DNA of 64,000 bases, from the IMG/VR virus record IMGVR_UViG_3300028833_000069. One strand, given 5' to 3'. Origin of the DNA: a virus. Lineage: Duplodnaviria > Heunggongvirae > Uroviricota > Caudoviricetes. This document shows positions 7,652 to 22,135 of the stretch, piece after piece. The notes under the pieces are model-generated. The model saw only the letters and a list, made by a program, of their open reading frames with translations, was not told where the DNA came from and ran no database searches. A program made the translations under genes and the position numbers. Numbering within the stretch: position 1 is the first letter of the stretch; every line of letters starts with the position of its first letter.

Positions 7652-7822
7652 ATTCTACTAAATCTACTCATTACTAACAGGCTATATTAGTAAGAATATG
7701 GATAATAATAATGCTTTAAGTTTCATTGTCTAATTCTTCAGGATCTTTAACTCCTTTAAAGACAAGATTATATATCATCATAGATATACATATTTGTTTT
7801 ATAAACCATTTCCAAATTTTTT

Positions 7823-8641
7823 TCATAATTCAATTGGATTACATTTAGCTAACTCCATCTTCATTTTTAAATCATTTATATGAAATTTTATTAACTTATC
7901 AACAGTTGATTTTAAATATTCAACAGGATAAGTTGCTTTTGGTTTCATATTTCTAACATGCACTATCTCTAATTTATCTATTTCCAAAGTTGGGTCTAAA
8001 TTCTGTAAACACCAAGCATATATAGATAACTGTAATTGATAATGAATTCCATTTACATCAGGTAGAGTGTTGAGAGGATACCTCATGTTCTTTGTTTTCA
8101 TTCTACCTGTATCAAATCTACCTTTAAAAGATATTTTGTCAACATCTTTCCAATCAATTATGGAAATATGTTTACCTTGTTTAACAACCAAATCTGCCAC
8201 ACCTACTATTGTGTAGTCTCCTATATTTACTTCCATTTTAAATTCTGGAAATAATCCAGACTCTGTAGTTAGGAAGTTGTCTACTTGACAAACAGGAAGT
8301 TTTGCAATACCGAAAGTATTTTGTAGAATTGTAACATCTTTTTTAAACATTTGTTCAATAGCTTCGTGTGTAGCTATACCAGCTGCTTTAGCTTCTTCAT
8401 TAGTATCTTTCCATTCTTTATTTATCTTTTCTAAAGAATCTTCATAAGCTTCTTTACCAACTTCAGCTATATACATAGGCAATATTCTTTTACTCCTTAA
8501 AAGACCAGTCTTAATTGCTGCAAACCTTTCTGGTTCCATTAACTTTTCTAAAGTTTTATAAGCAGCCCAAAACTCACCATCAAAACAGTGATATTGCTGA
8601 AGTAATACAGTTGTTGCAATTCTATTTTCTTCCATTATCAT
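7823..8641 (-). CDS. PD-(D/E)xK-type nuclease (RecB/Cas4/YqaJ-like)
   Basis: 272 aa. GVADLVV...IIDWKD and QLQLSIYA (QxxxY) motifs are typical of RecB-family nucleases. Confidence 0.45.
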   Translation of the reverse strand: MIMEENRIATTVLLQQYHCFDGEFWAAYKTLEKLMEPERFAAIKTGLLRSKRILPMYIAEVGKEAYEDSLEKINKEWKDTNEEAKAAGIATHEAIEQMFKKDVTILQNTFGIAKLPVCQVDNFLTTESGLFPEFKMEVNIGDYTIVGVADLVVKQGKHISIIDWKDVDKISFKGRFDTGRMKTKNMRYPLNTLPDVNGIHYQLQLSIYAWCLQNLDPTLEIDKLEIVHVRNMKPKATYPVEYLKSTVDKLIKFHINDLKMKMELAKCNPIEL

Positions 8642-9240
8642 TTAACATTTGTAAAATCAAGCAAGGTAGAAATTTGTTGAGATTTTTTTGATAAGTCACC
8701 TGTAATAAACTCCTTAGTAACTTTATGTTCAGACATAAATCCTAAAATAATAAATCCTATTGGAGTGTGAACTCCCTGAAGAGGACATACCACAATAGAT
8801 TTAAAACCATCTTCAGTTAATTCTTTATACATTCCAGGAAACACAGATTTAAGTTCTTTAATATCATCATACCAGACAATACCTTCCTTGTCTATCCTAT
8901 TTATAAAATGAGGTATTGCTGAAAGTAACATGTTATTAAACTAACTTGTCAATTCATCAATACCAAGTTTATTCTACTGAATTGTTGGAGTCATGTGTAG
9001 GAATTGTAAACCTGTCAGATTAGCTCCACCATTGTGATATTCAAATACAATAGCTCTATCTGCATCAGTTCTGTCTACTAAGTCTTTCATGACTTCTTTA
9101 ACTAACAAGACTTTCTCTTTTCTTGCTTTTAATGATTTTGCATGTGTATCCTCACTAGCATACTTTTCATGCCTTTTTTCAAAGTAAGGTTTCCAACTTG
9201 TAATATAAGTTACAATAGCAAATGCTAAAAAGAATAGCAT
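8638..9240 (-). CDS. membrane-anchored hypothetical protein with 2 in-frame TAG
   Basis: Track ORFs 8974..9240 and 8638..8931 are in one frame and joined through TAG at 8974-8976 and 8941-8943. The N-terminus has a TM helix. The gene ends on TGA. Confidence 0.4.
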
Positions 9241-9312
9241 TACACCTAGAATACCCCACTAATTAAAAAAATCTAATACTGTTGTAAGATTCATCTTTGT
9301 TATTTTCTCTAG

Positions 9313-9384
9313 AGCACCCTCCCAGAATCGAACTGAGATCTTTGGGTTACAAAGCCAAGGTAATAACCATTATACTAAGAGTGC
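9313..9384 (-). tRNA. tRNA-Thr(UGU)
   Basis: Cloverleaf with acceptor GCACTCT/AGGGTGC, T-loop TTCGATT and anticodon loop TTTGTAA. The anticodon stem has one mismatch. Confidence 0.55.
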
Positions 9385-9393
9385 ATAAATGTG

Positions 9394-9465
9394 CTGGCAG
9401 TACTGGAATCGAACCAGTATTGAGTGGTTAACAGCCACCTGTAATAACCTTTATACTAACTACCA
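9394..9465 (-). tRNA. tRNA-Asn(GUU)
   Basis: Acceptor TGGTAGT/ACTGCCA, anticodon stem GGTGG/CCACT, loop CTGTTAA, T-arm ACTGG-TTCGATT-CCAGT. Confidence 0.65.
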
Positions 9466-9471
9466 ATAAAG

Positions 9472-9547
9472 TGGATCTAGAGGAGACTCGAACCCTCAAC
9501 CTGCTGGTTGCAAACCAGCTGCTCTAGCCAATTGGAGCTATAGACCC
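9472..9547 (-). tRNA. tRNA-Ala(UGC)
   Basis: Acceptor GGGTCTA/TAGATCC, D-arm GCTC..GAGC, anticodon stem GCTGG/CCAGC, loop TTTGCAA. Confidence 0.65.
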
Positions 9548-9552
9548 AAAAG

Positions 9553-9626
9553 TAGTCTGGCTTGGATTTGAACCAAGGACCTCCATCTTATCAGGATGAC
9601 AATCTAACCAACTGATATACCAGACT
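9553..9626 (-). tRNA. tRNA-Ile(GAU)
   Basis: Perfect acceptor AGTCTGG/CCAGACT, anticodon loop CTGATAA, T-arm CTTGG-TTCAAAT-CCAAG. Confidence 0.7.
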
Positions 9627-9631
9627 ATGTG

Positions 9632-9706
9632 CGGTGTGTAGGGGATTTGAACCCCTGACTTCCTGCGTGACAGGCAGGCACTCTAGACCAGCTGAGCTAA
9701 CACACC
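9632..9706 (-). tRNA. tRNA-Asp(GUC)
   Basis: Acceptor GGTGTGT/ACACACC, anticodon stem CCTGC/GCAGG, loop CTGTCAC, T-arm AGGGG-TTCAAAT-CCCCT. Confidence 0.7.
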
Positions 9707-9713
9707 ATATAAG

Positions 9714-9787
9714 ACACACTGATGAGATTTGAACTCATGAATAGCAGTTTTGCAGACTGCCCCCTTAGACCACTTGGGTACAGTGTG
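9714..9787 (-). tRNA. tRNA-Cys(GCA)
   Basis: Acceptor CACACTG/CAGTGTG, anticodon stem GCAGT/ACTGC, loop CTGCAAA, T-arm ATGAG-TTCAAAT-CTCAT. Confidence 0.65.
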
Positions 9788-9790
9788 ATG

Positions 9791-9873
9791 TGGGAGTTGA
9801 GTGAGTCGAACACCCAGAGGCTAAGCCAAATGATTTACAGTCATCCCTGCTACCACTTACAGAATAAACTCCC
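9791..9873 (-). tRNA. tRNA-Tyr(GUA), class II
   Basis: Acceptor GGGAGTT/AACTCCC, anticodon loop CTGTAAA, long variable arm TGGCTTAGCCTCT, T-loop TTCGACT. Confidence 0.65.
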
Positions 9874-9880
9874 TAAATTG

Positions 9881-9953
9881 TCTGGATAGGAAGATTTGAA
9901 CTCCCGACCCCTTGCTCCCAAAGCAAGTGTTCTACCTACTGAACTACATCCAG
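9881..9953 (-). tRNA. tRNA-Pro(UGG)
   Basis: Acceptor CTGGATG/TATCCAG, D-arm GTTC..GAAC, anticodon stem CTTGC/GCAAG, loop TTTGGGA. Confidence 0.65.
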
Positions 9954-9959
9954 ATTATG

Positions 9960-10033
9960 TGCAGTAAAAAAGACTCGAACTCTCCCTCCCAGAATGGAAA
10001 TCTGGTGTGCTGAACCACTGACACTACTACTGC
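9960..10033 (-). tRNA. tRNA-Gly(UCC)
   Basis: Acceptor GCAGTAG/TTACTGC, anticodon stem CCAGA/TCTGG, loop TTTCCAT, T-loop TTCGAGT. Confidence 0.6.
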
Positions 10034-10038
10034 ATAAG

Positions 10039-10112
10039 AGCAATATAAAGGATTTGAACCCTCACTTCCTGACTGGCAGTCAAGTGTGCTAACCATTAAA
10101 CACTAATATTGC
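10039..10112 (-). tRNA. tRNA-Gly(GCC)
   Basis: Acceptor GCAATAT/ATATTGC, anticodon loop CTGCCAG, T-arm GAGGG-TTCAAAT-CCTTT. Confidence 0.55.
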
Positions 10113-10117
10113 ATAAG

Positions 10118-10148
10118 TTGCGGGGGTGGGACTCGAACCCACAACCTT
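10118..10148 (-). pseudogene. orphan 3' half of an initiator-like tRNA (T-arm GTGGG-TTCGAGT-CCCAC plus acceptor 3' strand CCCCGCA-A)
   Basis: The 3' end resembles bacterial tRNA-fMet (..CCCCCGCAAC). No matching 5' acceptor strand (TGCGGGG) exists nearby. The upstream sequence is the HNH coding region. Confidence 0.4.
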
Positions 10149-10380
10149 AAATTTTAGATTCTTGAAAATGATGCCATTGATGACAATTAGGACAAAGTAA
10201 AATACATTTATTCATTTCAGCTTTAATTTTGTCAAAGCTTAAATTACCTACTTCAGAACCACTAAAATCAAAAGATTTAGTAGAAGGATCTATATGATGA
10301 AACTATAGTATTTCAGGATGTTCTTTCCATCCACAAATAGCACAACATTTATCTTCTTTATACTTACGAAGAAAATTCAT
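10147..10380 (-). CDS. HNH homing endonuclease (77 aa) with one in-frame TAG
   Basis: Manual translation gives MNFLRKYKEDKCCAICGWKEHPEIL[TAG]FHHIDPSTKSF...NLS...LLCPNCHQWHHF. This is the CxxC...HH...N...CxxCH...H His-Me finger. TAG lies at 10303-10305. The gene sits between two Met-type tRNA sequences. Confidence 0.6.
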
Positions 10381-10453
10381 TCTTTTTTCTCTTCTTTTTC
10401 TGAAGTATTCTGTTCTTTTTCTCTAGTCTTTATACATAATTATAATTTTTAAG

Positions 10454-10525
10454 TTGCGCACGCAGGACTCGAACCTGGTCTAATGCTTATGAGACATTTA
10501 AGCTACCATTTGCTCCACCAGCGCA
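10454..10525 (-). tRNA. tRNA-Met(CAU) (elongator or Ile2-type; acceptor has 5 bp plus 2 mismatches)
   Basis: Anticodon stem AATGT/GCATT, loop CTCATAA, T-loop TTCGAGT, D-arm GAGC..GCTT. Confidence 0.5.
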
Positions 10526-10729
10526 ATATTTAATCTAAAATTAAGCTACCATTGCTACACCCCACTGAAATTTTGTGCAAAGGTACAACAAAAAATAGGA
10601 ACAAAAAACCCAAAATGTTCTTTTATAAAATAAAGCTCTCATTTTAAAACAAGAGGCTTAAACTTGTTTTTAATTTATCTACCTTTTTTATAGGAAGTAT
10701 TTGTAGTATCTTTGTAGAAAATTTTAAAT

Positions 10730-11620
10730 ATGAATCAAAATATATCAGAATTAGTAAAAGACCTGAAAACTCTTCCATTATTTAAAACTGGTGGAGGTAT
10801 ACACATTAAACCAGAGAATAAAGGAAAATTTACAGAGACTATGAAAAGAACTGGCAAAACCGCTGAAGAACTTTCACATAGTAAGAATGAATTAACAAGA
10901 AAGAGAGCATAGTTTGCACTTAATGCAAGAAAATGGAAACACCAAGAGGGTGGCACTATTGGATTATTTCAAGGTAAAAACTATTATAAACACAGTGCAA
11001 CTCAAGATAATTCACCATTGTATGATCCATATAAATTTAAAAATCTTGTTTATTCACCAGAAGATGAGGATGAAAGAAGAGAAGAAGAAATAATAGAAAT
11101 TCCTGAAGAAGTCCCTGTTACTAACCCCACCCTTACCAAAAAGACTACAGCTCCTAGAAATACAACATATTATAGACCTGCTTATCAAGGTAAAGAACAA
11201 TGGGTAAAGGATTTATATCAAGCCTATATAAATGCAGGTGCTTCTGAGAGTTTAGCACACACTCTTATAGCTCAGGATGCTATTGAAACAGCCTGGGGCA
11301 AGAAGACAGTGGGTAATTACAATTATGGTAATATACATGCTGGTAGTTCATGGAGAGGTGCAGTTGTTAATGCAAATGATAGAGATGCCACTGGAAATCC
11401 TTATAGAACAGGATTTAGAAGTTATAATAATATGAATGAATATGTAGCAGATAAATTATCATTGCTTACAAGATTATATGGAATAACAAATACTGATACT
11501 CCAGCTGTTGTAAAAGCTAAATTAGAAGGAGCAAACAGAAATGGTTATAAATATGCTGAGGCTGGACAACCTAGTTTATTAGCAACAACTGCTTCTGTAG
11601 CAAGAATGTTTCAATCATAA
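10730..11620 (+). CDS. peptidoglycan glucosaminidase (FlgJ-like Glucosaminidase domain), one in-frame TAG
   Basis: Track ORFs 10730..10912 and 11018..11620 share a frame and are continuous through TAG at 10910-10912. The domain motif is AQDAIETAWGKKTVGNYNYGNI...GNPYRTGFRSYNNMNEYVADKLSLL. Confidence 0.6.
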
Positions 11621-11624
11621 AACA

Positions 11625-11660
11625 AGAAACCCCAATAGGAAATTCCTACTGGGGTTTTAT
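11625..11660. terminator. bidirectional hairpin terminator between convergent genes
   Basis: AACCCCAATAGGAA-ATTCCTACTGGGGTT stem followed by TTTTATTTTTAT. Confidence 0.5.
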
Positions 11661-11662
11661 TT

Positions 11663-12826
11663 TTATACAGTATAAGTCAAACTTATAATTTGATTATCTG
11701 CTGTTAGTACTCTAGTTTCAATTACTGGATTGAAATCTTTAAATGCATCAGAGTACATACTAGGTTTTATTGCAAAGTCTTTAACTTTAGTAACAACTTT
11801 AGTATTACTATAGTCTGCTTTGTATGGTTTGAAGATTGTGCTTACTGCTATAGGTTCTCCTCCTTTAAATATAACTTTTTCAGATTCAACTGAACATAAG
11901 TTAATACCTAAATAATTAGGAAAAGTATCAAGCTTTATTGGAAATTCTTGATCTACAGTATCTTCTCTTATTGGAAGCTCTATAATATTTAGTTCATCAC
12001 ATTCTTTACAAGGCTCTTCAACTTCTTTATTAAGTTCTTCCATGTCTTTTGCTGAAATTAAAGTATAACCTTCAAGTTCTTCTTTTGTATCACATAAAAA
12101 GTTGCCTTCAACTATTTCTTTACCGTCTGCCTTAAAAGAAGCTTCTACTTTTTTATCATTTGCCTTGAATTCAACATGCAATGTTCTTACAATAGGTTCA
12201 CCATTTTCTTTAACAACTACTACATCATCAAATGCAGCACTTGTAATAACACTTCTTTTTGGGAATATAAAGAAATCAATACCAAAGAAATCAAGTGCTT
12301 CTTGAGCTTCTTCAAATGTCATGTCGTGCTTAATTTCAATGCAATTTACATTCTTTTCCACAGGTTTTTCCATAGGTTTAAAATTAACTTCTACTTCAGA
12401 GGGACTCATATATCTATAAATACCATCAACATTTATAAGAACATCTTCTTCTTTTAAAATAGTGTCGTCTAATCTTGAAACAATACAGATTTCCTTACCT
12501 GGTACAATGTATATACCAAAATTACCTTCTTTTATAGGACCATTATGTATTTGATACTTAATTCTTACAGATCCTTCTAAATCAAATGGTACAACTTTAT
12601 TAAGATTATTAAGATATTTCTCTGCATCTTCTTTTGTATCAAAGAAATTCTTAATCACTACATAAGGACACCAATCTGGTATATATCCAAACATTTCTTC
12701 TTTTTCTAAATCTAAATGAAATGCAGCAGCTTCTTTCTTAGCTTGCTGTTCCTTTTGCTCTGCTTTCTCTTCAAGAGCTTTTACAAATTCGTCTAAAATT
12801 TTGTCAAATTCCATATTCATTAACAT
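11663..12826 (-). CDS. hypothetical late (probably structural) protein
   Basis: 387-aa acidic ORF. No recognisable motif. Confidence 0.45.
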   Translation of the reverse strand: MLMNMEFDKILDEFVKALEEKAEQKEQQAKKEAAAFHLDLEKEEMFGYIPDWCPYVVIKNFFDTKEDAEKYLNNLNKVVPFDLEGSVRIKYQIHNGPIKEGNFGIYIVPGKEICIVSRLDDTILKEEDVLINVDGIYRYMSPSEVEVNFKPMEKPVEKNVNCIEIKHDMTFEEAQEALDFFGIDFFIFPKRSVITSAAFDDVVVVKENGEPIVRTLHVEFKANDKKVEASFKADGKEIVEGNFLCDTKEELEGYTLISAKDMEELNKEVEEPCKECDELNIIELPIREDTVDQEFPIKLDTFPNYLGINLCSVESEKVIFKGGEPIAVSTIFKPYKADYSNTKVVTKVKDFAIKPSMYSDAFKDFNPVIETRVLTADNQIISLTYTV

Positions 12827-12844
12827 TTAATTGTTATCGAGTAA

Positions 12845-13240
12845 TTATACAGGAGTGTAATATTGATATTTCTTTGGCTGCAATGTCTGCCCAACAGCAT
12901 TGACTGCATTGTTACCGATTTGTGCAGTTGTCTAAAGAGCATTGGCTCCAATGTTTCCTGCTGTTTGCAAACCGTTCGTCGCAACAGAACCTGCTGCTTG
13001 CATTCCTGTATTGGCCAATTGTCCACCTGCTCTAATACCAGCATTAGCTACTTGTGCAGTTGTCTGAAGACCTGTACCTACTGCACTTGCACCTACATCC
13101 AAAGCTGTTCCTAAAATAGATCCAATAGCTTGTCCACCAACTTTAAGGCCTTGTTTAATGCCATTACCAATTTTCTGCATAAAGTCTATAAAACCACCTG
13201 CATCTAATTTTTTAGGCTAATAATACTTTAAATTACTCAT
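12845..13240 (-). CDS. Gly/Ala/Asn-rich small protein with 2 in-frame TAG
   Basis: Track ORF 12932..13180 extends through TAG at 12932-12934 to a TAA at 12845. A plausible start is MSNLKYY[TAG]PKKLD at 13238-13240. Confidence 0.3.
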
Positions 13241-13243
13241 ATC

Positions 13244-13801
13244 TTATAATGTGTTATCTTTAATTATATTTTTAATAAGTTTTACATGTAATTCAGCAAT
13301 TCTTTGTCTTCCCTTTTCTGACATTATAAATCTACAGTCTTTTTCTGTATCCATGAAAAAATTCTCAGTTAAAATTGCAGGACATTTTGTATATTTAACT
13401 ATTTGATAGTTAGCTTCTTTATGCCCTCTACATTTCCATTCTGGAAAATCTTTTTTAAACATATCTACCATTCTGTTAGCAATAATGTCAGATTTAGTTT
13501 TACCAGTAGAAGTAAAAACTTCCCAACCAGTACCACCACCTGCATTTGCATGTATAGATATAAGGAAGCAATTTTTTTCAGCATTTGCTCTCCTACATCT
13601 CATATTAAGAGATATATCTTTATCTTCTGGAACTAAAATAGTATATGGTATTTTTTCAATATCTAACATTTTAGCTATCCTTTTTACTATATCTCTGGTA
13701 AACTCCCATTCAAATAACTAGGAGCTGTCATTCCAAATAGGGCTTCTTTTACCAGGTGTTTCCTGGCCATGCCCATTATCAAGTAATACTTTGTTAATCA
13801 T
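13244..13801 (-). CDS. N-acetylmuramoyl-L-alanine amidase (Amidase_3), one in-frame TAG
   Basis: N-terminus MINKVLLDNGHGQETPGKRSPIWNDSS[TAG]LFEWEFTRDIV.... Downstream lie LISIHANAGGGTGWEVF and PAILTENFFMD. TAG is at 13718-13720. Confidence 0.65.
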
Positions 13802-13956
13802 GATTGTGATCAATAGTAGATAAATAATTTAAACTGTCTTCAAAATCTAAGAACCATTGTTCATTAGTAGCTTCATTCTTTTCAACAGCAATAATAAAAA
13901 CATCATTTAGTAAAAGAATAGCTTTAGATACTTTTTTCAATAACCATTTCCTCATT

Positions 13957-14259
13957 TTAATTCTCTTTTGGAATATATAATGTGCAAACACATTTATCAT
14001 GTAGCCTATATTGCTCACATGGGCAATGTTTGTCTCCATCATCTTCATGATGGCAAGGACACTCACCTTTACATCTGTTAATGCCTCTTATAATACCTTG
14101 CACAATTTTCTCATTTGGATTTAAGATAAAACCTTCTCTGCAATTTTTACTTACATAATCTAAATCAATAGAATGATCTTGCATATCCTTTTCTTTTTTC
14201 ATGTTCAGCACCTTTATTTGATCTTTCAAAAGTTTCCTCAAAAAGGGTAGTAATATCAT
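13957..14259 (-). CDS. Cys/His-rich small protein (possible Zn-binding)
   Basis: CKGECPCHHEDDGDKHCPCEQY cluster. It overlaps track ORF 13794..14066 in another frame. Confidence 0.3.
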   Translation of the reverse strand: MILLPFLRKLLKDQIKVLNMKKEKDMQDHSIDLDYVSKNCREGFILNPNEKIVQGIIRGINRCKGECPCHHEDDGDKHCPCEQYRLHDKCVCTLYIPKEN

Positions 14260-14866
14260 CTAAAGATAGTTCTGGATTATTCCAAGCTGTTTTGAAATCA
14301 GAAACTGGAAATAATCTACCTTCCCTCTCTCTGTCACCATACCTTTCATCGGTATATTTTAAAATCTTTTCATACTCTCTTTTAAGAGTAGGATTGTTAG
14401 GATATTTATCATACTCAGCTTTTGCTCTAGCAAGTATATCCTTTTGAGCATTATATCCATTCATATATATGTCATGGCCACTATTTATAACCCATAACAT
14501 ATAATCTATTTCTGGATATTTACCAGTTTTATTAGATTTAAGCCAGTTATTATAATGTCTAGCTCTATCACCTAACATCTGGAACAAACCTGTTGCTGTA
14601 GAATCTGGATTAGCAGCTTTAATGTTAAAACTTGACTCTTGCATTATATTGCCCATTAAAGCAGCAGCATTTCTTTTACTAACTCCTTTCTCAAGTAAGT
14701 AGTTCCACAAATCTGACATTAAATCATATTGGCTTGGTGTAAAATATTGCTCATTACCAATACCTTTTAAATATGATTCAATATCAGCTTTTGCTTTAAA
14801 TGGCCCAGATTCTTTTATAGTACCACCAGGTTGCAATTTCTTAATTGGTATATAAAATCTACTCAT
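14165..14866 (-). CDS. lysozyme-like peptidoglycan hydrolase domain protein
   Basis: The NAAALMGNIMQESSFNIKAANPDSTATGLFQM motif is typical of phage tail/lysozyme-like PG hydrolase families. Confidence 0.5.
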   Translation of the reverse strand: MSRFYIPIKKLQPGGTIKESGPFKAKADIESYLKGIGNEQYFTPSQYDLMSDLWNYLLEKGVSKRNAAALMGNIMQESSFNIKAANPDSTATGLFQMLGDRARHYNNWLKSNKTGKYPEIDYMLWVINSGHDIYMNGYNAQKDILARAKAEYDKYPNNPTLKREYEKILKYTDERYGDREREGRLFPVSDFKTAWNNPELSLDDITTLFEETFERSNKGAEHEKRKGYARSFY

Positions 14867-14882
14867 ATCTATTATAATTTAG

Positions 14883-14972
14883 TAGCCCCTGAGGGACTCG
14901 AACCCTCACAACCTCCAACAGAAGGATATAACAGTTTTAGAGACTGGTGTACTGCCATTATACTAAGGGGCA
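14883..14972 (-). tRNA. suppressor tRNA with anticodon CUA (reads UAG), class II with long variable arm
   Basis: Anticodon stem CAGT/ACTG with a 7-nt loop CTCTAAA (U33, CUA at 34-36, A37). The anticodon is complementary to plus 14938-14940 tag. D-arm GTAT-AATGGCA-GTAC. Variable arm of about 23 nt with a CCTTC/GGAGG stem. T-arm GAGGG-TTCGAGT-CCCTC. Acceptor GCCCCT/AGGGGC with a 1:72 mismatch. Confidence 0.6.
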
Positions 14973-14996
14973 AAACAAGCTCTTCATAGAAGAGCC

Positions 14997-15167
14997 TTAT
15001 TCACAAACTTTATCAGCAATTGCAGTACCAACTAAAGCACCAAAAGCTCCAGCCATTACTGTAAACAAACCAACATACCAAGTAATTGCAAAACCAATTA
15101 AAGACAATGCTACATATCCTGTTCCACCAATTACTTTTCTCCAATTCTTTTTAAACCATTCTTTCAT
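14997..15167 (-). CDS. small membrane protein (56 aa), holin/spanin candidate
   Basis: Manual translation MKEWFKKNWRKVIGGTGYVALSLIGFAITWYVGLFTVMAGAFGALVGTAIADKVCE. It lies next to the PG hydrolases. Confidence 0.3.
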   Translation of the reverse strand: MKEWFKKNWRKVIGGTGYVALSLIGFAITWYVGLFTVMAGAFGALVGTAIADKVCE

Positions 15168-15289
15168 ACTTTTCTTTCTTAATTTCTTCTAACATTAAAC
15201 CTACTTTAAGATAAGCTTCATCTCTTATAGGATCTATACCATATACTCTGTTATAACAATACATTATACAGCTATCTAAAAATTCTAAC

Positions 15290-15433
15290 TCACTCATTTT
15301 CAATTAATCCCAACCCACTCAATCCTATAAAGAACATAGTAGGAATCATTACTAAACAAACTACTGACATACCAGCAAATATTAAACCAGCATATAAGCA
15401 GTAGCCAAACATTTTAAAATACTTCTTAATCAT
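15290..15433 (-). CDS. small membrane protein (47 aa), holin candidate
   Basis: Manual translation MIKKYFKMFGYCLYAGLIFAGMSVVCLVMIPTMFFIGLSGLGLIENE. Confidence 0.25.
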   Translation of the reverse strand: MIKKYFKMFGYCLYAGLIFAGMSVVCLVMIPTMFFIGLSGLGLIENE

Positions 15434-15660
15434 TTTTTCTTACTTGCTACTTTTAAAATATAATCTATTACTTCAGCTGCATATATAAACTTAACTCTTA
15501 ATACAATATGAGTAAGAGAACTTACAATAATTGTACCATTAACATAGTTAAATATTACTTTAGGCCATCCTTTTTGAGAATATGCCTGACTGAACTCTTT
15601 ATCTTCTCTAACATACCCAAACATTATGAGTAATTCCTTAAGATTATTTACATCATTCAT
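15430..15660 (-). CDS. hypothetical protein
   Basis: 76-aa track ORF. Confidence 0.3.
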   Translation of the reverse strand: MNDVNNLKELLIMFGYVREDKEFSQAYSQKGWPKVIFNYVNGTIIVSSLTHIVLRVKFIYAAEVIDYILKVASKKK

Positions 15661-15740
15661 ATTACATTTTGTTTAATTTTACAGTGCAAAGGTACTACTT
15701 TTTTAAGCCTAAAAAAACCCAAACTGTTAAAAACAAATTT

Positions 15741-15775
15741 AGCTCCCTCATTGTGTAATGAGAGAGCTAAATTTT
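15741..15775. terminator. hairpin terminator
   Basis: TTAGCTCCCTCATT-GTGTA-ATGAGAGAGCTAA followed by ATTTTTT, just downstream of the gene ending at 15780. Confidence 0.5.
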
Positions 15776-15779
15776 TTGA

Positions 15780-16580
15780 TTAACTAAGTGTCCTGTTCTC
15801 CATTTCGTTTATATAGATAATACCATTTGTAGAATCATAATCAAATACATGCCACAATGGGAATTGCATATAATTAGCATCTGGAGTTGTTCCAGAAGCT
15901 TGTGTTGCTCTAGAAGAATCAATTTCAATTATAGGATTATTTAATAAACTTACAGTAACTTTAGCACCAGTATTGGATATTTGTACTCCAGCTGTTTTAG
16001 ATTGTGTGGAGTAATTAAATATATAAAACTTTAACTTGTAAGAATTATCCCAAGTTTTAATAGAGGTTGTTTCTATACCTCCAGGAAGCTCTTTATCCCT
16101 ACCACCAACTCCATCATCAATATCTAAACTAAGTACAGCATTACCAATTGTTTTATCAACTCCTACATCATTAAACATTACTCTACCTAATTGATTATCG
16201 TTAGAATCATAAACAAATGCCCAGCTGTCTAAGTCTTGAGTAGCACTAGATGCACCTATATTCCAAGTAAGTACTGATGATAAAATTCTATCTCTTTTGG
16301 TTAAAGGTATTTGCTATATATAACTAGTAGTTACAACATAATTTGTAACATCTTGATAAACATTAGTGTTATCTTTAAAAGTCAAAGTACTTCCAATCCA
16401 TTCTGAAGAGAGTTGTATATATTCAGAAGTGATATAGTCAACACCTTGAGTGTTATGAGTAATGAGTGTGCCATTATAATAAACATCAATCTTTGATGTA
16501 TCATATAAAGTTCCTAATTCAGATTGTAAGAAACATAATCTTACAGCTCTAGGATATAAGTATTTCTTAGATATTAACAT
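15780..16580 (-). CDS. hypothetical late protein with one in-frame TAG (possible fiber/receptor-binding type)
   Basis: Track ORFs 16314..16580 and 15780..16178 share a frame and are continuous through TAG at 16314-16316. The sequence is rich in Thr/Ser/Asn/Gly. Confidence 0.4.
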
Positions 16581-16837
16581 TATTGTAAGTATTTGTAGTT
16601 TATAAAGTCATCTAGCTAACTTTGAGTATAGTAATATTTTTCATCAAGTATGGCTTTAAGATTTTTAGTATTCCAAGATATACTTTTTTCTTTTACCCAA
16701 GGATAATTAACATTTATATATTTGTCAAGTGGTGTCCCTGAAGTATTACCCATAACAGGTTCTGTTACTTTTGCTTTAGGAGCATATAAACCTCTCTTAG
16801 GACCATCTTTTACAACTCTGTTGTCATGTCTAGCTTG

Positions 16838-17329
16838 CTACTCAACAATTGCTTTATAATTACTTTGTCTATTAGCTTGTTCTCTTATAGCAGCACTTTT
16901 AGCAGCAGCTTTTTCAGCATTTCTTCCCAGAAATCTGTTATAAGCAGCATCAACAAAAGCTTTAAAGTTTTCTGAAGTAAAAGGCACTTCTTTCCCATTT
17001 AAAGGAAGTTTAGCAGATAAATACTTTCCTCTTGGTTGTGGACCACCTAAAGTTAAAGCTTTACTTATAAAAGGTCTAGCTACACTAGAACCAGGCACAG
17101 CAACTGCTGTAACAGCTTCCATGCTGTGCGTATTAGGGTCTCCTGCAATATACCTACCAACAGTAGGCCAGCCTGTTAATTCAAGGAACTAATTTCCTCC
17201 ATATAAGAAATAATCTTTAGCATCTCTTAAATGGTCTTTAATCAACTCTACTCTCTAATTAAGAGGTAATGCTGGTAATGCAGAAGGAACTCCTCCTTGC
17301 TATAATTTATAAGGTTTATAATATGTCAT
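16838..17329 (-). CDS. hypothetical protein with three in-frame TAG
   Basis: MTYYKPYKL[TAG]QGGVPSALPALPLN[TAG]RVELIK...GGN[TAG]FLELTGW... continues into track ORF 16838..17122. Confidence 0.4.
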
Positions 17330-17652
17330 TATTTAAATAATTTAATTATTCTACTCCACAAAGAAGGCTTATCTTCAGCATTATGCCAAGCTTCTCTTGC
17401 TTGTCTTAACCACATTTCTTTAGAATCAGTATCTTCTACATAACCTCCCCATTCATATGGATCATACCTATATACTTTTGCTTCTGTTTTAGAACCTACT
17501 GCTGGCCAAGTTACTTTATGATCTGTACCATTCATACTCTTAGGAGTAATTAAAACTGTTGTGTCATTTGGTGTTGCAGATAATAATCTTATGTCTGCTT
17601 TAATGGTATCATTACCATTTTTAGTGTACCAAGTTTGTTTAGTTTTGCTCAT
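17329..17652 (-). CDS. hypothetical protein
   Basis: 107-aa track ORF. Confidence 0.4.
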   Translation of the reverse strand: MSKTKQTWYTKNGNDTIKADIRLLSATPNDTTVLITPKSMNGTDHKVTWPAVGSKTEAKVYRYDPYEWGGYVEDTDSKEMWLRQAREAWHNAEDKPSLWSRIIKLFK

Positions 17653-17977
17653 ATCTATACATTACTAATTTGTTATCTTCACTGTCAAACTCACCTTTGG
17701 TAAATCCAAGATTCTCATAATACTTTACTAACTTGGTTTTACTAGGATCTACTTTTAAATAAGGAACACATTCTTTGTATATATTACATCCTTCTTCTAT
17801 TAAAGCCTTTCCTAAACCCCTCCCCCTCATCTCTGGAAAAACCCAAAGGTCAGATAAACAAGCATATTCAGGGTCATCTGAAAACTTTGAAACTCTAATC
17901 ATACTTTTCATATCAGGAATAAATATATAAGTAGTAAGCATGTCTCCCCAATCTTGTGAATGCTTTATAAATTCCAT
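17639..17977 (-). CDS. GNAT family N-acetyltransferase
   Basis: LWVFPEMRGRGLGKALIEE matches the acetyl-CoA-binding motif A (R/Q-x-x-G-x-G/A). Confidence 0.55.
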   Translation of the reverse strand: MEFIKHSQDWGDMLTTYIFIPDMKSMIRVSKFSDDPEYACLSDLWVFPEMRGRGLGKALIEEGCNIYKECVPYLKVDPSKTKLVKYYENLGFTKGEFDSEDNKLVMYRYEQN

Positions 17978-18284
17978 ACAACAAAAAATTTTTGCAAAAT
18001 TACAACAAAAAGTATTAAATAAAAAGACAAAACTATAAAAAATAAAATAAACACTTCATTGGTAAATGAGACTACTAATTTCATTTTTAGTAAAAGAAGC
18101 ACAAGTAGTCCTTACACATGTGTGTGCACATGTATATATAATAAGGTGTAAGATTGTACAAGATTCAAAATTGTATATATAGGCTAGATGTACAAAGTGT
18201 ATGGTAATCGGCCCCCTCCCCTCAACGGAGGAAAACCCAAAACTGAATCCTCTTTTGATTTTACAAACCAAAACACAAACCATT

Positions 18285-18575
18285 ATGATACTCATTGGAC
18301 ATCACATTGGTCAGTGCATCATCTGCTCTGACAACAGCAACACTTACTTTGTTGCAAAACCAGGTCAACCTTTTGACCTTGCTGAACATCGTGCTTGCTT
18401 AGCACATGTGGCACAATTAGAAATTTTGGAAGGCAACTTCACTGCTTACAAGGCATTGAAGAAACTTCCACACATTGTTCATCTCCAGCAAGAGCAATAT
18501 GCTTTATTGGAGAGAGCAGCAGAGACTCACAACTCTGACATCTTTGGGGCTATGGCAGATATGCTTCTGCCTTAG
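18285..18575 (+). CDS. hypothetical protein in GC-rich island
   Basis: ATG at 18285. Local GC is about 45-47% versus about 33% in flanks, with GC3-rich codons. Confidence 0.35.
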   Translation: MILIGHHIGQCIICSDNSNTYFVAKPGQPFDLAEHRACLAHVAQLEILEGNFTAYKALKKLPHIVHLQQEQYALLERAAETHNSDIFGAMADMLLP

Positions 18576-18688
18576 TCTCTGAGCCTATGCTTCCTTGATT
18601 GGGGGCATAGGCACTTATTTATTTAGTTAACTGAACAGTGTCCGCATTGGGCTGTTCTAATTATTTACCTTTTAAACTAGTTTTTGAT

Positions 18689-19246
18689 ATGAAATTAGAT
18701 GAATTCAAAGCCAGTGAGAGCAAACTTGCTCAGTTAGGCTTTAAAGTTGACGACGGTTCCAAGAACCTGAACCAGGCATTTATGCCTCAGTCTTTTGCAG
18801 AGGGTGACATCATTGAGTCTCTTGATACTGCATTGGTTTCCAATGAGGTAGAGATTGCAGGTGAGAAGCGCACTGTAATTGGTGTAGCCTGCAAGATTAC
18901 CAACAAGGCAGGTGTCAGCAGAACTCAGGTTGTTGCATACAACACTCTGACAGGCTCTCTGATTATGGAGAAGAATGCTCTGACCACTGCTCCTCGCAAG
19001 CCTCGCTTTGCTGCACTGTTTGGTGCTCAATTTGAGGAGGTAAGGAATGAGAAGGGTGAACTGTTGGGCCGTGCATTCCCATTCCCCTTCAAGGTCAAGA
19101 TTGATCAGGAGGTTGATGCATTCAACACTGTCTTCCAGGATGGCAGCACAATCTTTGAGGATGAGAATGGTGCAAAGCACTATCGCACCACAGAGGAGCC
19201 TGCTAAGAAAGGCATTTCTACAGGTGCTAATCTGATTCGTCGCTAA
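18689..19246 (+). CDS. hypothetical protein in GC-rich island
   Basis: 185 aa from MKLDEFKASESKL. Codon usage is atypical for this genome. Hairpin terminators follow at 18590-18620 and 19250-19300. Confidence 0.4.
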   Translation: MKLDEFKASESKLAQLGFKVDDGSKNLNQAFMPQSFAEGDIIESLDTALVSNEVEIAGEKRTVIGVACKITNKAGVSRTQVVAYNTLTGSLIMEKNALTTAPRKPRFAALFGAQFEEVRNEKGELLGRAFPFPFKVKIDQEVDAFNTVFQDGSTIFEDENGAKHYRTTEEPAKKGISTGANLIRR

Positions 19247-20039
19247 TGAGGCAGACCAGGACTGTAAAGGCATACCACCATAGTGGCTGTGCCTTTACTC
19301 TCCTTCCTCAACTTCCTTTTGGTGTAAAATCAAGTATTATTCCAATTCTTGGACAGACATCTGAGATATTGGGAGTACAGCCATACATAATCCCAACCTT
19401 ATTAGACAACAGGTATTACTACTTGTTGATAAGAGATAACATTGTTAAGCAGGCAATGCTTTGCACTGAAGAAGAGGAAGGGGGGATTATAGGGGGGAAA
19501 GTATAACAGGAAAGGGATTAAATATAAATATATTATAATACTCTTTCTTTGTTAGATAGAGGTGTGGAGGAAGATTTATTTCTTTCTCAGGGCACTTTCT
19601 GGTTTAATCTGAGCAGTTAACCAGACCTGTTAACAAGTACTGTTAAACAGGCTATAAATAAGCTTTAAAGGTATTCTGAGAAACTACTTGAAATGTACAC
19701 TGTTAGTGATGAACTAATAAGGAGATGTAATGGCAGAATACTAGCCTAGGAGTCATTGGTTTGGCTACTAGGTACAATTAGGTTAAGTGATGTGATTGTT
19801 CATGGCGCGGTTTATTAGGAGTGTACTGCTTGTGAAAGTAGTACCTCCACCTTCTTTTTGGGTTACAGACATTGGTAATGGATTGAGCTAGTTGGCACTT
19901 CATTTTAAGATTTTGATGCTCATTTGATAATGAGACTTCTAAATTAGTTTTTAATAATCTGGCTTTTTTAGAGGTATAAAAAGTATTAATTTTGCAGTGT
20001 TTTAGGTACAAATATATACATTAACAGGCTGACATAAAA

Positions 20040-20108
20040 GTGAAATAGCATTTTTTATACCTATTTTGTCATTTTCAGGCAAGTGAAATGTCATTTTTTA
20101 TACCTATA
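20040..20108. repeat. two 25-bp direct repeats GTGAAAT(A/G)(G/T)CATTTTTTATACCTAT
   Basis: Copies at 20040-20064 and 20084-20108. A TTCTATACT tandem and the palindrome GCAGGATTTCATCCTGC (20138-20154) follow. The repeats lie upstream of the first plus-strand gene. Confidence 0.5.
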
Positions 20109-20243
20109 AATTCTATACTAATTCTATACTCAATGCAGCAGGATTTCATCCTGCCTCTAACTAATTAATTATCAATGAGTTATAACCAAAATCAATTTGT
20201 AGTAGTTCAGCATGATATTTAGCTGACTCCAGAACAGCTTTTA

Positions 20244-20909
20244 GTGTATGTTATTATTAAGAAAGGAATGGATGGTGCAAGTCACATTTCTTATGTTAAT
20301 ATAGGTACAATAATGGCAGTTTCAAACCTTAATAAGTCTACAATTCTTAAATATCTTGAAGTTATTGAAGAAAAAGGATATTTTAAGATTGTAAAATGTG
20401 GTGCTAATTTGCACTATAACTCTTATGTCTTTCCACAAGAACATAGAGATGAGAAATTTGAAAGATTTGCTTTTGAGATGATTGAGAGACCAGACTTAAC
20501 TCCAACAGAAAAAGCATATCTAATAGCTTTACAAAAGCATTTGTTCATAGATTTTGAATCTGGAGTAGGTAGAGTATCATACTCAGATTTGGAATTATGC
20601 CAAAAAATACAAGGTAGTAGAAAAAAACTTATGGAAGTTATGAAATCTCTAAAAGAAAAAGGTATTATTGATCAAGAAACAGAAATCTTTAAAAGAGATA
20701 AAGAAACTGGACTTAGAGTAAGACAAAGAGATTTTATACTTAATAACTATAATACTGCTGCTATAAAAAGAATTGAAAAGAAACTTGATGAGAAAGTAGA
20801 TAGAAAAGAAGTAGAAGATATAGTAAATAAAGCTGTATCTAAAGCTATTAGAAAACTTCTGTTGTCTAGTGCTGATATTCAGGATATTATTGCTGATGGT
20901 GAAGCTTGA
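20244..20909 (+). CDS. putative DNA-binding (HTH/winged-helix-like) regulator or replication-initiator-like protein
   Basis: 221 aa, basic, first gene of the plus-strand module downstream of the direct repeats. The assignment is weak. Confidence 0.3.
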   Translation: MYVIIKKGMDGASHISYVNIGTIMAVSNLNKSTILKYLEVIEEKGYFKIVKCGANLHYNSYVFPQEHRDEKFERFAFEMIERPDLTPTEKAYLIALQKHLFIDFESGVGRVSYSDLELCQKIQGSRKKLMEVMKSLKEKGIIDQETEIFKRDKETGLRVRQRDFILNNYNTAAIKRIEKKLDEKVDRKEVEDIVNKAVSKAIRKLLLSSADIQDIIADGEA

Positions 20910-21203
20910 CTTTACTTAAAGTTGTATGTGTGGTAAAGTGTGTAACTATCTGATTACTAATGTTTTACACCTTTAATCTTCACTTATTTTCAACACTTGG
21001 GTGAGGTCGGCGCGGGGCTTTTCTAATTCAGAAAAATTCCTTTATTTCAGATTTAGGAGAGTTTTGGGTGGGTTTAGACAATTTCTAAGTTTTTGAAATT
21101 TTCAAATCATCTTCTTTTTTCCTCTTTACATCCAATTTCTCCTTTTTTCTTATTTTGAAATTTTCAAACTCAGATTTAAAGCTCTGAGTGATACAAAATA
21201 TAT

Positions 21204-21596
21204 ATGGCAATTGTTGCAAAAGTCCTTCTGACCATTAACTTGGAGGGAGGCCTCACTGGAGCAGTGAGCAATGCTGGTTCTAAGAAAGAGAAGCAGAGAA
21301 TGAAGAAAAGTACTTTCTGGAATGGGAAAGGACCTTTACCAAAAGGTTATTACCACTCTCAGGAGAAGTACAATGAGAGACCTCAGACAGACTGTATTCA
21401 GAAATTGAGTATCAGTGAGGACAACTACCGTGCTTATGTTGCACCTATTCCAAAAGAGAAAGGTGAGACAAAGCAGGAAGCAGCCAAGAGAGTTTGGTGG
21501 AACAAGTTAGAGCCCAAACAGAGGCTTGAGTTTCATCTTGGAGAGATTTGTCAGTCTCTTGGTGGTAAGAGTTATACTTATGAAGTGATTGACTGA
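21204..21596 (+). CDS. hypothetical protein
   Basis: Track ORF. Confidence 0.4.
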   Translation: MAIVAKVLLTINLEGGLTGAVSNAGSKKEKQRMKKSTFWNGKGPLPKGYYHSQEKYNERPQTDCIQKLSISEDNYRAYVAPIPKEKGETKQEAAKRVWWNKLEPKQRLEFHLGEICQSLGGKSYTYEVID

Positions 21597-21820
21597 TGAA
21601 ATCTGGTGAAACACTGCTTTGTAGACATGGCAGTATAAACCAGGTTATTCCCTTGCCTAAAAATCCTGTTGGGTATATGTCTACTATGCCTAAAGGTACA
21701 GTAATGGAGCATTGTACTCCTACTGGTAAGCAAGGAAGGAAAGCATTTCATAAGACTTACTGGACATCTAATGGAGATGGTACAGTAAGGATTGATAGGG
21801 AATATTCTAATTGTAAGTAG
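21596..21820 (+). CDS. hypothetical protein
   Basis: Track ORF, ATGA overlap with the upstream gene. Confidence 0.35.
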   Translation: MKSGETLLCRHGSINQVIPLPKNPVGYMSTMPKGTVMEHCTPTGKQGRKAFHKTYWTSNGDGTVRIDREYSNCK

Positions 21821-21822
21821 TT

Positions 21823-22068: not shown

Positions 22069-22135
22069 TCTAGGGATGCATCTATTGGTTTAGGTGCATC
22101 TCACACACTTCTTTTGAATTGTAGCCATTTTTAGT

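Follow-up and report, generated by a model that had tools for sequence, protein, structure and literature searches.

The amber suppressors of Escherichia coli include supE, a tRNA-Gln with the anticodon CUA, and su+7, a tRNA-Trp with the same anticodon that is charged mainly with glutamine. According to the recoding literature, recoded gut phages generally read TAG as glutamine; phAss-1 does so (PMC10607447), and in a cell-free screen of 213 phage suppressor tRNAs 28 of 29 phage CUA tRNAs inserted glutamine (PMC12636597). The recoding literature also states an open question, namely how host synthetases that read the anticodon charge such suppressors efficiently enough to switch the code. The subject here is a stretch of 64,000 nucleotides (nt) from the phage record IMGVR_UViG_3300028833_000069 (the window; 31.9% G+C, 24 tRNA genes), which possesses on its minus strand a 90 nt tRNA with the anticodon CUA, tRNA(CUA). 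Between its anticodon arm and its T arm this tRNA carries a second, auxiliary hairpin with CUG in the loop. The reading favoured overall (probability about 0.6) is that the auxiliary arm would present the cognate anticodon to glutaminyl-tRNA synthetase (GlnRS) while the ribosome reads CUA.

ARAGORN calls a tRNA with the anticodon CTA at 14882..14972 on the minus strand, and the Rfam family RF00005 matches 14883..14972 (-) end to end (model positions 1-71; 52.1 bits, E = 2.7e-8, gathering score 29). The full tRNA is 5'-UGCCCCU UA GUAUAAUGGCAGUAC A CCAGU CUCUAAA ACUGU UAUAUCCUUCUGUUGGAGGUUGU GAGGG UUCGAGU CCCUC AGGGGCU A, and the CCA end is not encoded. The gene and its parts are:

14883..14972, minus strand: amber suppressor tRNA(CUA), from ARAGORN, Rfam and a syntenic orthologue in locus L014
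14931..14947, minus strand: decoding anticodon arm CCAGU-CUCUAAA-ACUGU, with CUA at 14938..14940 and a mismatched top pair C27•U43
14908..14930, minus strand: extra region of 23 nt, UAUA-UCC-[UUCUGUU]-GGA-GGUUGU, i.e. the auxiliary hairpin and its linkers
14914..14926, minus strand: core of the auxiliary hairpin, a stem of 3 base pairs (bp), UCC/GGA, and a 7 nt loop UUCUGUU, with CUG at 14919..14921 after a U in the place of U33

The tRNA possesses an acceptor stem of 7 bp, a GG-containing D loop, U33 in an anticodon loop of 7 nt and a UUCGA T loop, as is canonical. Its D arm has 15 nt (4 bp stem and 7 nt loop), its T arm is GAGGG-UUCGAGU-CCCUC, and its acceptor end combines a U1•U72 mismatch with G2:C71, C3:G70 and the discriminator A73; G10 is present as well. 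A first-pass annotation of this DNA had described a 90 nt tRNA with the anticodon CUA in the loop CUCUAAA, canonical D and T arms and a mismatched 1:72 pair, leaving the strand unstated; ARAGORN and Rfam agree with the former, the ARAGORN cloverleaf displays both arms, and the 1:72 mismatch is the U1•U72 given above. The covariance model accepts the tRNA with CUA in place. The variable arm of about 23 nt in that annotation likewise stands, whereas its stem of 5 bp does not: CCUUC/GGAGG with a UGUU loop is the minimum-free-energy register of the single sequence and is not kept in the closest relative, the register kept in the relative and the family being UCC/GGA around the 7 nt loop UUCUGUU. 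The annotation missed that the arm is a second anticodon-arm-like hairpin with CUG. Either hairpin alone would complete a canonical cloverleaf. The decoding loop CUCUAAA is common to all phage CUA tRNAs retrieved, but it was part of the search pattern.

Three other identities were considered for the window tRNA and rejected. The ARAGORN label is tRNA-Pyl, because of the CUA anticodon alone; tRNA-Pyl has a 3 nt variable loop, a 6 bp anticodon stem and a small D loop lacking GG, and the window tRNA has a D loop with GG, the UUCGA T loop and a variable region of 23 nt. A tRNA-Sec identity is rejected by structure. An allo-tRNA would possess an acceptor branch of 12 bp split 8/4 or 9/3, and here a 7 bp acceptor stem is combined with a 5 bp T stem.

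A related phage is represented by the 169 kb contig IMGVR_UViG_3300028591_000093 (loci L011 and L014), which aligns collinearly with positions 1..21870 of the window at 71-87% nucleotide identity and possesses a CUA tRNA of 88 nt at the syntenic place. Going from the window to the relative, two D-stem pairs (G10:C25 to A:U, U11:A24 to C:G) and two pairs of the anticodon stem (C28:G42 to U:A, A29:U41 to G:C) show compensatory changes, and the 1:72 pair of the relative is a weak U:G. The arm core UCC-UUCUGUU-GGA is identical in L014, with both arm flanks differing. Because the syntenic tRNA has compensatory changes, the window tRNA(CUA) is functional and no chance match; it is almost certainly a functional amber suppressor, and the pattern of substitutions shows selection acting on it.

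The auxiliary hairpin is not confined to these two phages. A strict pattern scan was followed by a loose one, which demanded no more than a suppressor anticodon loop, a long gap and a T loop (GTCT-CTA/TCA/TTA-AAAC ... GGTTCGA). The strict scan yielded six phAss-like copies and L007, which has the classical tRNA-Gln acceptor end U1:A72, G2:C71, G3:C70 and G73; from the loose CUA scan came 104 stretches of viral contigs, and a further 96 from genomes of bacteria or archaea. A family of 60 distinct sequences was drawn from 71 distinct long CUA tRNAs of viral contigs and 7 from gut Bacillota contigs of metagenome-assembled genomes. Its members share a class-I body, a CUA arm next to the D arm, a linker of 1-6 nt, a hairpin with a 7 nt loop and 3-7 nt up to the T stem. 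The loop follows N-U-[C/U]-U-G-A-N, with C or U at position 32 in 59/60, U at 33 in 58, C (53) or U (7) at 34, A at 37 in 56 and a variable position 38; positions 35 (U in 60/60) and 36 (G in 60/60) are the anchor by which the family was selected. CUG and UUG are the two glutamine anticodons, and save for position 38 the mimic loops are those of the genuine tRNA-Gln of these phage loci (CUUUGAC, CUCUGAC). The window loop UUCUGUU carries CUG. Independently of the anchor, U-Y-U-G is present in the arm of 52 of the 71 long amber tRNAs, and UYUGA occurs 47 times against 2.7 expected from shuffles.

The closing stems vary freely (UCC/GGA, GC/GC, UAUC/GAUG, CACGG/CCGUG, UACGG/CCGUA, CGCAC/GUGUG, CUCGU/GCGAG and others). 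The second stem pair, for example, is CG in 30, GC in 21, UA in 5 and AU in 3 of the 60 sequences. The stem covariation score amounts to 0.595, against 0.20 ± 0.03 in shuffled sequences (0/500 reach it) and 0.11-0.20 in slid registers. The family selection had included the two innermost pairs. The third pair, which lay outside it, forms in 74-75% of the sequences with all four Watson-Crick types; the outer two pairs are weak. Entropy at loop positions 33, 34 and 37 is 0.21, 0.52 and 0.42 bit, and reaches 1.5-1.9 bits in stems, linkers and acceptor stems. Other conserved elements do not account for the arm: a UGAA tetraloop was rejected, the base after UGA being A, G, C or U, and so was a Shine-Dalgarno-like GGAGG, which is absent in many members, U33, Y34, U35, G36 and A37 being conserved instead. 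Other stem registers (a 5 nt loop, a 3 nt loop, shifts of ±1 and ±2) pair worse, save for a U33:A37 "pair" in 54/60. As judged from the family alignment, the arm is very probably a selected mimic of the glutamine anticodon arm on covarying stems.

Deletions in silico give the same picture from both sides. Without the auxiliary arm a standard CUA tRNA remains in 60/60; without the CUA arm and linker ARAGORN calls tRNA-Gln(CUG/UUG) in all 34 testable amber members, the window construct becoming a 72 nt cloverleaf called as tRNA-Gln(ctg). The insertion measures 17-22 nt, i.e. one anticodon arm with or without a linker, a size that suggests an origin of the auxiliary arm by tandem duplication of the anticodon arm.

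Long opal tRNAs possess a counterpart. The loose UCA scan detected 70 distinct sequences, with UCCA in the arm of 51/70, UCCAA in 48 against 1.3 expected, and UYUG in 0/70; UCCA is found in only 1/71 of the long amber tRNAs. In 37 opal tRNAs the motif lies in a 7 nt loop [C/G/U]-U-C-C-A-A-A, closed by at least 5 uninterrupted pairs in 31/37 and by 33 different stems. The ordinary tRNA-Trp genes of these loci have exactly CUCCAAA as their anticodon loop (26/28), and deletion of the UCA arm in silico leaves a tRNA-Trp(CCA) in 31/37. By this comparison the anticodon in the auxiliary loop is that of the amino acid known to be assigned to the respective stop, glutamine for amber and tryptophan for opal, and the two-arm design comprises >100 distinct sequences, on contigs of a few kb to >400 kb. 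Mimics occur only for amino acids whose synthetases read the anticodon, going by a published identity table (PMC9976931). The 19 opal tRNAs without the motif have another body type resembling tRNA-Sec, and the 17 long CUA tRNAs without it have class-II type bodies with longer D arms (Ser, Leu or Tyr-like). No mimic was found in the scans among Ser/Leu class-II type and tRNA-Sec-like long suppressors, nor among the long ochre (UUA) tRNAs (n=8), all of Leu/Ser type with ordinary arms.

Several other long tRNAs in these loci deserve mention. The CUA tRNA of L111 (IMG/VR; GGGAGCUUGG...) possesses the auxiliary hairpin GAGGU[GUCCAAA]GCCUC with a Trp anticodon, the sole cross-case among the 71 amber tRNAs, and this phage may read TAG as tryptophan. 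Class-II type (Ser/Leu/Tyr-like) CUA tRNAs with ordinary variable arms are present in L019, L030, L058, L074, L097 and L098, on contigs of 130-415 kb, where TAG may be read as something other than glutamine. In the phAss-like loci L001 (2917..3085), L004-L006 and L008-L010, arm-less and arm-bearing CUA suppressors stand in tandem, 3 nt apart; the tandem adjoins tRNA-Leu(UAA), and the short suppressor has a U1•C72 mismatch. Unexpected extra arms are found in tRNA-Ile(UAU) of L039 (7718..7813, 96 nt) and L068 (2437..2528, 92 nt), the arm loop of L039, with C-GAU-AAA, being a possible mimic of the Ile (GAU) anticodon. Other odd long phage tRNAs (Lys, Asn, Met, Cys, His) showed no such mimic motif.

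The amino acid inserted at TAG can be read from the genes that possess in-frame TAG codons, foremost:

1085..3382, minus strand: large terminase (TerL) gene of Crassvirales type, three in-frame TAG (tblastn)
13244..13801, minus strand: N-acetylmuramoyl-L-alanine amidase gene, in-frame TAG at 13718..13720 (Pfam Amidase_3, E = 1.1e-28)

A codon-by-codon alignment of the window with its relative comprises 4587 codon pairs whose context is conserved. At 20 sites the partner of TAG is a sense codon, namely CAA at 8 and CAG at 6, i.e. glutamine at 14/20; serine, glutamate, lysine, valine, tyrosine (TAT) and threonine occur once each and leucine not at all. At 4 further sites TAG is present in both phages. 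TAG has the same partner profile as the CAA and CAG codons, and the eight TAG-CAA exchanges are synonymous because each needs two nucleotide changes. In out-of-frame alignments, used as a control, TAG faces TTG or TGG, the neutral one-step pattern. An example of a glutamine site is ELTRKRA-TAG-FALNARKW in the window against ELTRKRA-Q-FALNARKW in the relative. In the column of the third TAG of TerL, four homologues have Q, cr125_1 has TAG and Fpv3 has R, and the second TAG corresponds to Q in the closest homologue. The sole serine correspondence pairs TCG of the window (841..1278 (-), codon 97) with TAG of the relative, a single-nucleotide change. As in a Gln-type amber suppressor, CUA keeps C34 and U35 and the TAG sites match glutamine. 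From these alignments TAG is very probably read as glutamine, which in all likelihood would be inserted at the TAG codons of the late genes (TerL, amidase and other structural or lysis genes). The earlier suggestion that the long arm points to Ser, Leu or Tyr at TAG is contradicted by these sites, by the TerL columns and by the class-I body of the tRNA. The alternative it had held in reserve, a Gln-charged tRNA that acquired an arm, gains support from the glutamine sites, the class-I body and the Gln-loop arm.

The segment lengths of the window tRNA(CUA) are all those of the tRNA-Gln of the window, including a class-I D arm. The body is class I and Gln/Trp-like, and its D and T arms are separated by a tandem of two hairpins. 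A variable region of >10 nt forming a stem-loop, one mark of class II, is present (23 nt, hairpin predicted); the enlarged D arm seen in tRNA-Tyr and tRNA-Leu of the window and the very short arm linkers are not, the arm being flanked by 4 and 6 unpaired nt. In the survey, the anticodon stem is preceded by 27-28 nt in true class-II CUA tRNAs and by 24-26 nt in most members that bear the mimic. With respect to published identity sets (PMC9976931), the window tRNA lacks the Ser set (G73, C72, G2-C71, C11-G24), having A73, U72 and U11:A24, so that comparison of identity elements does not favour class II; the Leu set (A73 and tertiary elements) is represented by A73, and the Tyr set (A73, G34, U35) by A73 and U35, with C at position 34. 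The bacterial Gln set comprises G73, U1-A72, G2-C71, G3-C70, G10 and U34/U35/G36/A37/U38 (PMC9976931). The window tRNA has a weak U1•U72, G2:C71 and G10 of these and deviates in C3:G70 and A73; the tRNA-Gln(UUG) of the window likewise possesses A73. Among the 60 family members G2:C71 is present in 54, G73 in 49, G10 in 53 and G3:C70 in 14, and the D arm has 14-17 nt (15-16 in 55). The 1:72 pair is weak or mismatched in 55/60 (U:A 20, U•U 13, A•C 11, A:U 7, U:G 2, U•C 1, G:U 1), and the mismatch of the window tRNA fits Gln identity. The acceptor and core profile of the family matches the bacterial Gln set and overlaps the Trp set (PMC9976931).

How the auxiliary arm might work can be outlined from what is known about GlnRS. 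Its determinants include U35 and G36, and mutation of determinants costs up to 10^5-fold in activity (PMC9976931). A suppressor with CUA has lost G36, one of the anticodon bases, chiefly U35 and G36, on which GlnRS depends heavily, and the opal counterpart with UCA lacks C34 for the tryptophanyl-tRNA synthetase, TrpRS. The auxiliary arm would supply the cognate anticodon loop in cis and restore GlnRS binding or catalysis; the host GlnRS would then charge the tRNA efficiently, and the ribosome would use the CUA arm for UAG. The two hairpins may stand side by side, or the auxiliary arm may replace the decoding arm on the enzyme, with flexibility provided by the long linkers and the often weak 27:43 pair atop the decoding arm. 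The preference for C34 would be apt for a loop that has to be recognised but has no need of wobble decoding or modification. In crystals of GlnRS with tRNA-Gln the anticodon stem is extended by 32•38 and U33•A37 pairs and bases 34-36 are splayed out, a picture that the conserved U33 and A37 of the mimic (potential U:A pair in 54/60) fit. That a synthetase reads the auxiliary loop, and in which steric arrangement, we infer. The odds that the arm acts as a synthetase recognition handle appear somewhat better than even. Whether two anticodon arms, with CUA/UCA read by the ribosome and CUG/UUG or CCA by the synthetase, represent a general phage solution to suppressor identity is, on the sequences surveyed, an even call.

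A number of points weigh against recognition of the auxiliary loop by GlnRS. The class I enzyme GlnRS is described in textbooks as approaching tRNA from the side opposite the variable region, so that an arm swap or a side-by-side arrangement must be postulated. Lak, crAss-like and phAss-like phages possess short arm-less CUA suppressors, so TAG can be read as glutamine without the arm. The window lineage has U37 (shared with L014) against A37 in 56/60 members, and its auxiliary helix comprises only 3 uninterrupted pairs, about 11 members having only 2. The window tRNA carries A73 and C3:G70, not G73 and G3:C70. Its 5' half is identical to the tRNA-Gln of the window at 21/25 positions with the same segment lengths, but its T arm is closer to tRNA-Arg(UCU) of the window than to tRNA-Gln; in-window similarity, only half supporting a Gln origin, was therefore rejected as proof and is not decisive alone. 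The family was anchored on YUG and at least 2 closing pairs and the scans need exact patterns, so that the census is incomplete and carries a bias; the contigs, moreover, are metagenomic. The window covers only part of the phage genome, and another CUA tRNA may lie elsewhere.

Among the alternatives, the arm may be a passive relic, left over from a tandem duplication of the anticodon arm through which the suppressor arose, or a neutral or stabilising insertion, with GlnRS using C34, U35 and the acceptor end alone. Arm-less CUA suppressors are common and sufficient, the insertion has the size of one anticodon arm with or without a linker, class I synthetases tolerate solvent-facing insertions in the variable region according to textbook knowledge, and charging could proceed as it does with suppressors of the supE or su+7 type. 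Many phage CUA tRNAs are substrates of E. coli GlnRS, and a Prevotella GlnRS also charges phage CUA tRNAs, some perhaps arm-bearing (PMC12636597). Nevertheless, a relic is unlikely: loop positions 33, 34 and 37 are near invariant (35 and 36 being anchored) while stems, linkers and acceptor stems diverge with full covariation, and the amber-Gln/opal-Trp match is held across >100 distinct sequences, in which neutral relics would decay. Doubtful to a slightly greater degree is a two-state or processed tRNA, in which either hairpin serves as anticodon arm (reading CAG and UAG), or one is excised and the tRNA religated, e.g. by RtcB, which would turn a sense tRNA-Gln into a suppressor or the reverse and so act as a timing switch of the code change. 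Removing one or the other hairpin in silico leaves a canonical cloverleaf, the window encodes RtcB at 35906..37204, and recoding has been proposed to time late gene expression (Borges preprint). However, neither an endonuclease nor a splice signal such as a bulge-helix-bulge motif was identified, an auxiliary helix of 2-3 bp, as is often present, is poor for ribosomal decoding, and position 38 is A in the mimic and C in genuine tRNA-Gln loops. RtcB is moreover a common repair enzyme of large phages (textbook knowledge), and the reading of CAG adds nothing where the host has its own tRNA-Gln.

The handle may instead serve a factor other than GlnRS, be it an enzyme modifying the anticodon loop, the non-discriminating GluRS/GatCAB route of Bacillota, a phage protein or, as a decoy, a host anticodon nuclease. 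Gut Bacillota contigs, the source of many family members, stand for hosts in which the route to Gln-tRNA may be indirect (textbook knowledge), the tRNA repair ligase of the window suggests a tRNA-targeted conflict, and the mimic prefers C34 (53/60) whereas genuine phage tRNA-Gln mostly has U34. This proposal seems about as improbable as a two-state tRNA, no candidate being located next to the tRNA, and the sole property common to Gln and Trp but not to Ser and Leu being that the synthetase reads the anticodon (PMC9976931). The identity initially suggested, a class-II suppressor for Ser, Leu or Tyr (e.g. supF-like) with TAG read accordingly, can draw on the formally long variable region, on A73, common to Leu and Tyr identity, on one TAG-TCG and one TAG-TAT correspondence and on the existence of true class-II CUA tRNAs in other phage contigs. 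It is nonetheless highly improbable in view of the predominance of glutamine at the aligned TAG sites and in the TerL columns, the class-I D arm, the lack of Ser determinants, and an arm with long unpaired flanks and the Gln-loop motif, both foreign to true class-II members. Presentation of the cognate anticodon to GlnRS by the auxiliary arm is the reading retained here.

The tRNA sits in the late or lysis module. Directly adjacent to it are:

14165..14866, minus strand: Phage_lysozyme2/SLT-like peptidoglycan hydrolase gene, no in-frame TAG (Pfam PF18013, E = 1.4e-19; PHROGs tail/lysis hits)
14975..14998, minus strand: GC-rich hairpin AAGGCUCUUC-UAUG-GAAGAGCUU followed by GUUU, abutting the tRNA 5' end (from sequence)

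The start codon of the lysozyme gene lies 16 nt past the tRNA 3' end, and the TAG-bearing amidase gene follows. The Amidase_3 match spans residues 5-177, across the TAG, which sits after a conserved N-terminal motif and is TAG in the relative as well. The amidase and TerL genes are clients of the suppressor. The first-pass annotation had placed the tRNA directly upstream of peptidoglycan-hydrolase genes, as the cognate amber suppressor of a TAG-recoded late or lysis module, and both statements are borne out. The hairpin 14975..14998 is likely a terminator or processing hairpin of the upstream 56 amino acid open reading frame (ORF; 14997..15167); a comparable hairpin precedes the orthologous tRNA in L014, a simple terminator scan did not call it, and promoter and terminator scans around the tRNA gave results at chance level. 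Read as sense, TAG joins ORFs in the first ~19 kb of the window, chiefly on the minus strand, including TerL, amidase and several unassigned proteins. TGA recoding of the window was rejected, as TGA read as sense adds few codons to real genes and mainly makes spurious ORFs, and no evidence for it was seen. Plus-strand ORFs of at least 110 amino acids in window positions 19500..64000 end in TAA (30), TGA (22) and rarely TAG (4/56); three of these four TAG ends have TAA or TGA 4-8 codons on, which look like tandem backup stops for when suppression is on.

With annotated crAss-like TerL proteins the window TerL shares 31-33% identity, and with MT835470 49% (tblastn); going by TerL, the phage is a large crAss-like one, probably of Bacteroidota. 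The TerL region of the relative (L011 10074..10329, window junction 2773/2775) has ~255 extra nt in the N-terminal part of the gene, which could be an insertion, an intron or a divergent segment. The sole nucleotide match among GenBank phages, ~200 nt at 71% identity, is to Lak megaphages, whose CUA tRNAs are short, unlike that of the crAss-like window phage. A query with the lysozyme protein found no related loci among viral contigs; the tRNA region of the relative was reached by walking from a neighbouring gene.

Further features of the window concern tRNAs and their repair. Inside the recoded module, 11 closely spaced tRNA genes (Thr, Asn, Ala, Ile, Asp, Cys, Tyr, Pro, Gly, Gly, Met) form an array at 9312..10525 (-); the corresponding array of the relative possesses a Glu tRNA that the window array lacks, and lacks the Tyr tRNA and the second Gly tRNA. 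At 48653..48729 (+) ARAGORN reports a "tRNA-Stop" (UUA), which needs a 6 bp anticodon stem with an A•A mismatch; Rfam (64.4 bits) gives a 5 bp stem CCUCA/UGAGG and the loop CCUUUAA, hence UUU, on a Lys-like body with C33, not U33. The gene is either an ochre suppressor or an odd tRNA-Lys. A group I intron is present at 34686..34926 (+) (RF00028, 87.7 bits, E = 4.9e-21), with no obvious interrupted ORF or tRNA around it and a Cys-rich ORF of 143 amino acids on the opposite strand at 35066..35497. The RtcB tRNA ligase gene mentioned above (+; Pfam E = 6e-64) is followed at 38997..43446 (+) by genes for a radical SAM protein, NAD synthase and nicotinate phosphoribosyltransferase, together a tRNA-repair gene and NAD-salvage block. 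The window also encodes a Cpn60/GroEL-like chaperonin (4971..6443 (-), Pfam E = 7.7e-40) and an SPFH/Band 7 protein of 622 amino acids (31068..32936 (+)).

TAG-to-Gln recoding, the use of tryptophan at TGA in gut phages and phage Gln suppressors are already known; the identity function proposed for the auxiliary arm would be new. The literature searched comprised only open-access papers and bioRxiv preprints, among them the recoding papers, a theta-ribozyme preprint, a zeta-crAss paper, the 213-tRNA screen and tRNA reviews of 2020 and 2023, and none was found to describe a second arm of anticodon type in a suppressor tRNA. If true, the cognate anticodon loop copied in cis would add a new kind of element to tRNA identity and would answer the charging question raised in the recoding literature. 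The auxiliary loop would then predict the amino acid of a recoded stop from the tRNA sequence alone (for L111, TAG as tryptophan), and a spare anticodon arm that decouples decoding from charging would offer a design principle to synthetic biology. The arm also explains why such tRNAs are mislabelled, as Pyl or SeC by ARAGORN and as "class II" by eye. Even under another mechanism, the conserved two-arm architecture is a robust and apparently unreported feature of phage tRNAs.

With E. coli supE and the short code-15 phage suppressors (crAss-like, Lak, phAss-1) the window tRNA shares the CUA anticodon in a loop of CUCUAAA type, the class-I body, the weakness of the 1:72 pair, G2:C71 and G10. These suppressors insert glutamine at TAG via the host GlnRS, and the phage genes lie in or near late or lysis modules, as here; they have 72-75 nt and a variable loop of 4 nt, whereas the window tRNA possesses a 19 nt insertion, the second hairpin with the Gln loop. 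As exemplified by su+7, Trp-like or Gln-like bodies with U35 are GlnRS substrates, and in many family members A1 is combined with a D arm and an anticodon stem that are Trp-like; in contrast to the family, su+7 has no extra arm and a dual Trp/Gln identity, and the family arm, with a Gln and not a Trp anticodon, would bias identity towards glutamine. The closest annotated member of the family is the phAss-1 "tRNA-Sup-CTA" (OQ749652.1, 62445..62532, 88 nt), found by BLAST with the window tRNA, so that one member is already in GenBank. It is 79.7% identical over 74 nt and has the arm AUUCC[CUCUGAA]GGGGU; unlike the window tRNA it possesses A1:U72, G73 and an encoded CCA, comes from a phage with a Bacillota-type host and stands next to a normal CUA tRNA of 72 nt. 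The phAss-1 paper treats it simply as a Gln suppressor and leaves the arm unmentioned (PMC10607447). Allo-tRNAs (PMC5389517) are also long-armed, some with CUA, and occur in metagenomes and phages; the window tRNA differs in its 7/5 acceptor and T stems and has no Ser identity, and the acidobacterial long CUA tRNAs from the genome scan carry no mimic. The class-II tRNAs for Leu, Ser and Tyr and the nematode nev-tRNAs (PMC3333845) likewise possess five helices with a stem-loop between anticodon and T arms, and in nev-tRNAs the variable arm can override anticodon-based identity (PMC3333845). The window tRNA differs from them in its class-I D arm, 4-6 unpaired nt on each side of the arm, a copy of an anticodon loop and an amino acid that would be set by an anticodon-reading synthetase. 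Hairpins with anticodon-like loops outside their tRNA place and read by identity rules are known from the E. coli thrS operator and from yeast aminoacyl-tRNA synthetase mRNAs (PMC9976931). Those mimics sit in mRNAs and regulate translation; the mimic of the window lies in cis, in the tRNA itself, and would promote aminoacylation.

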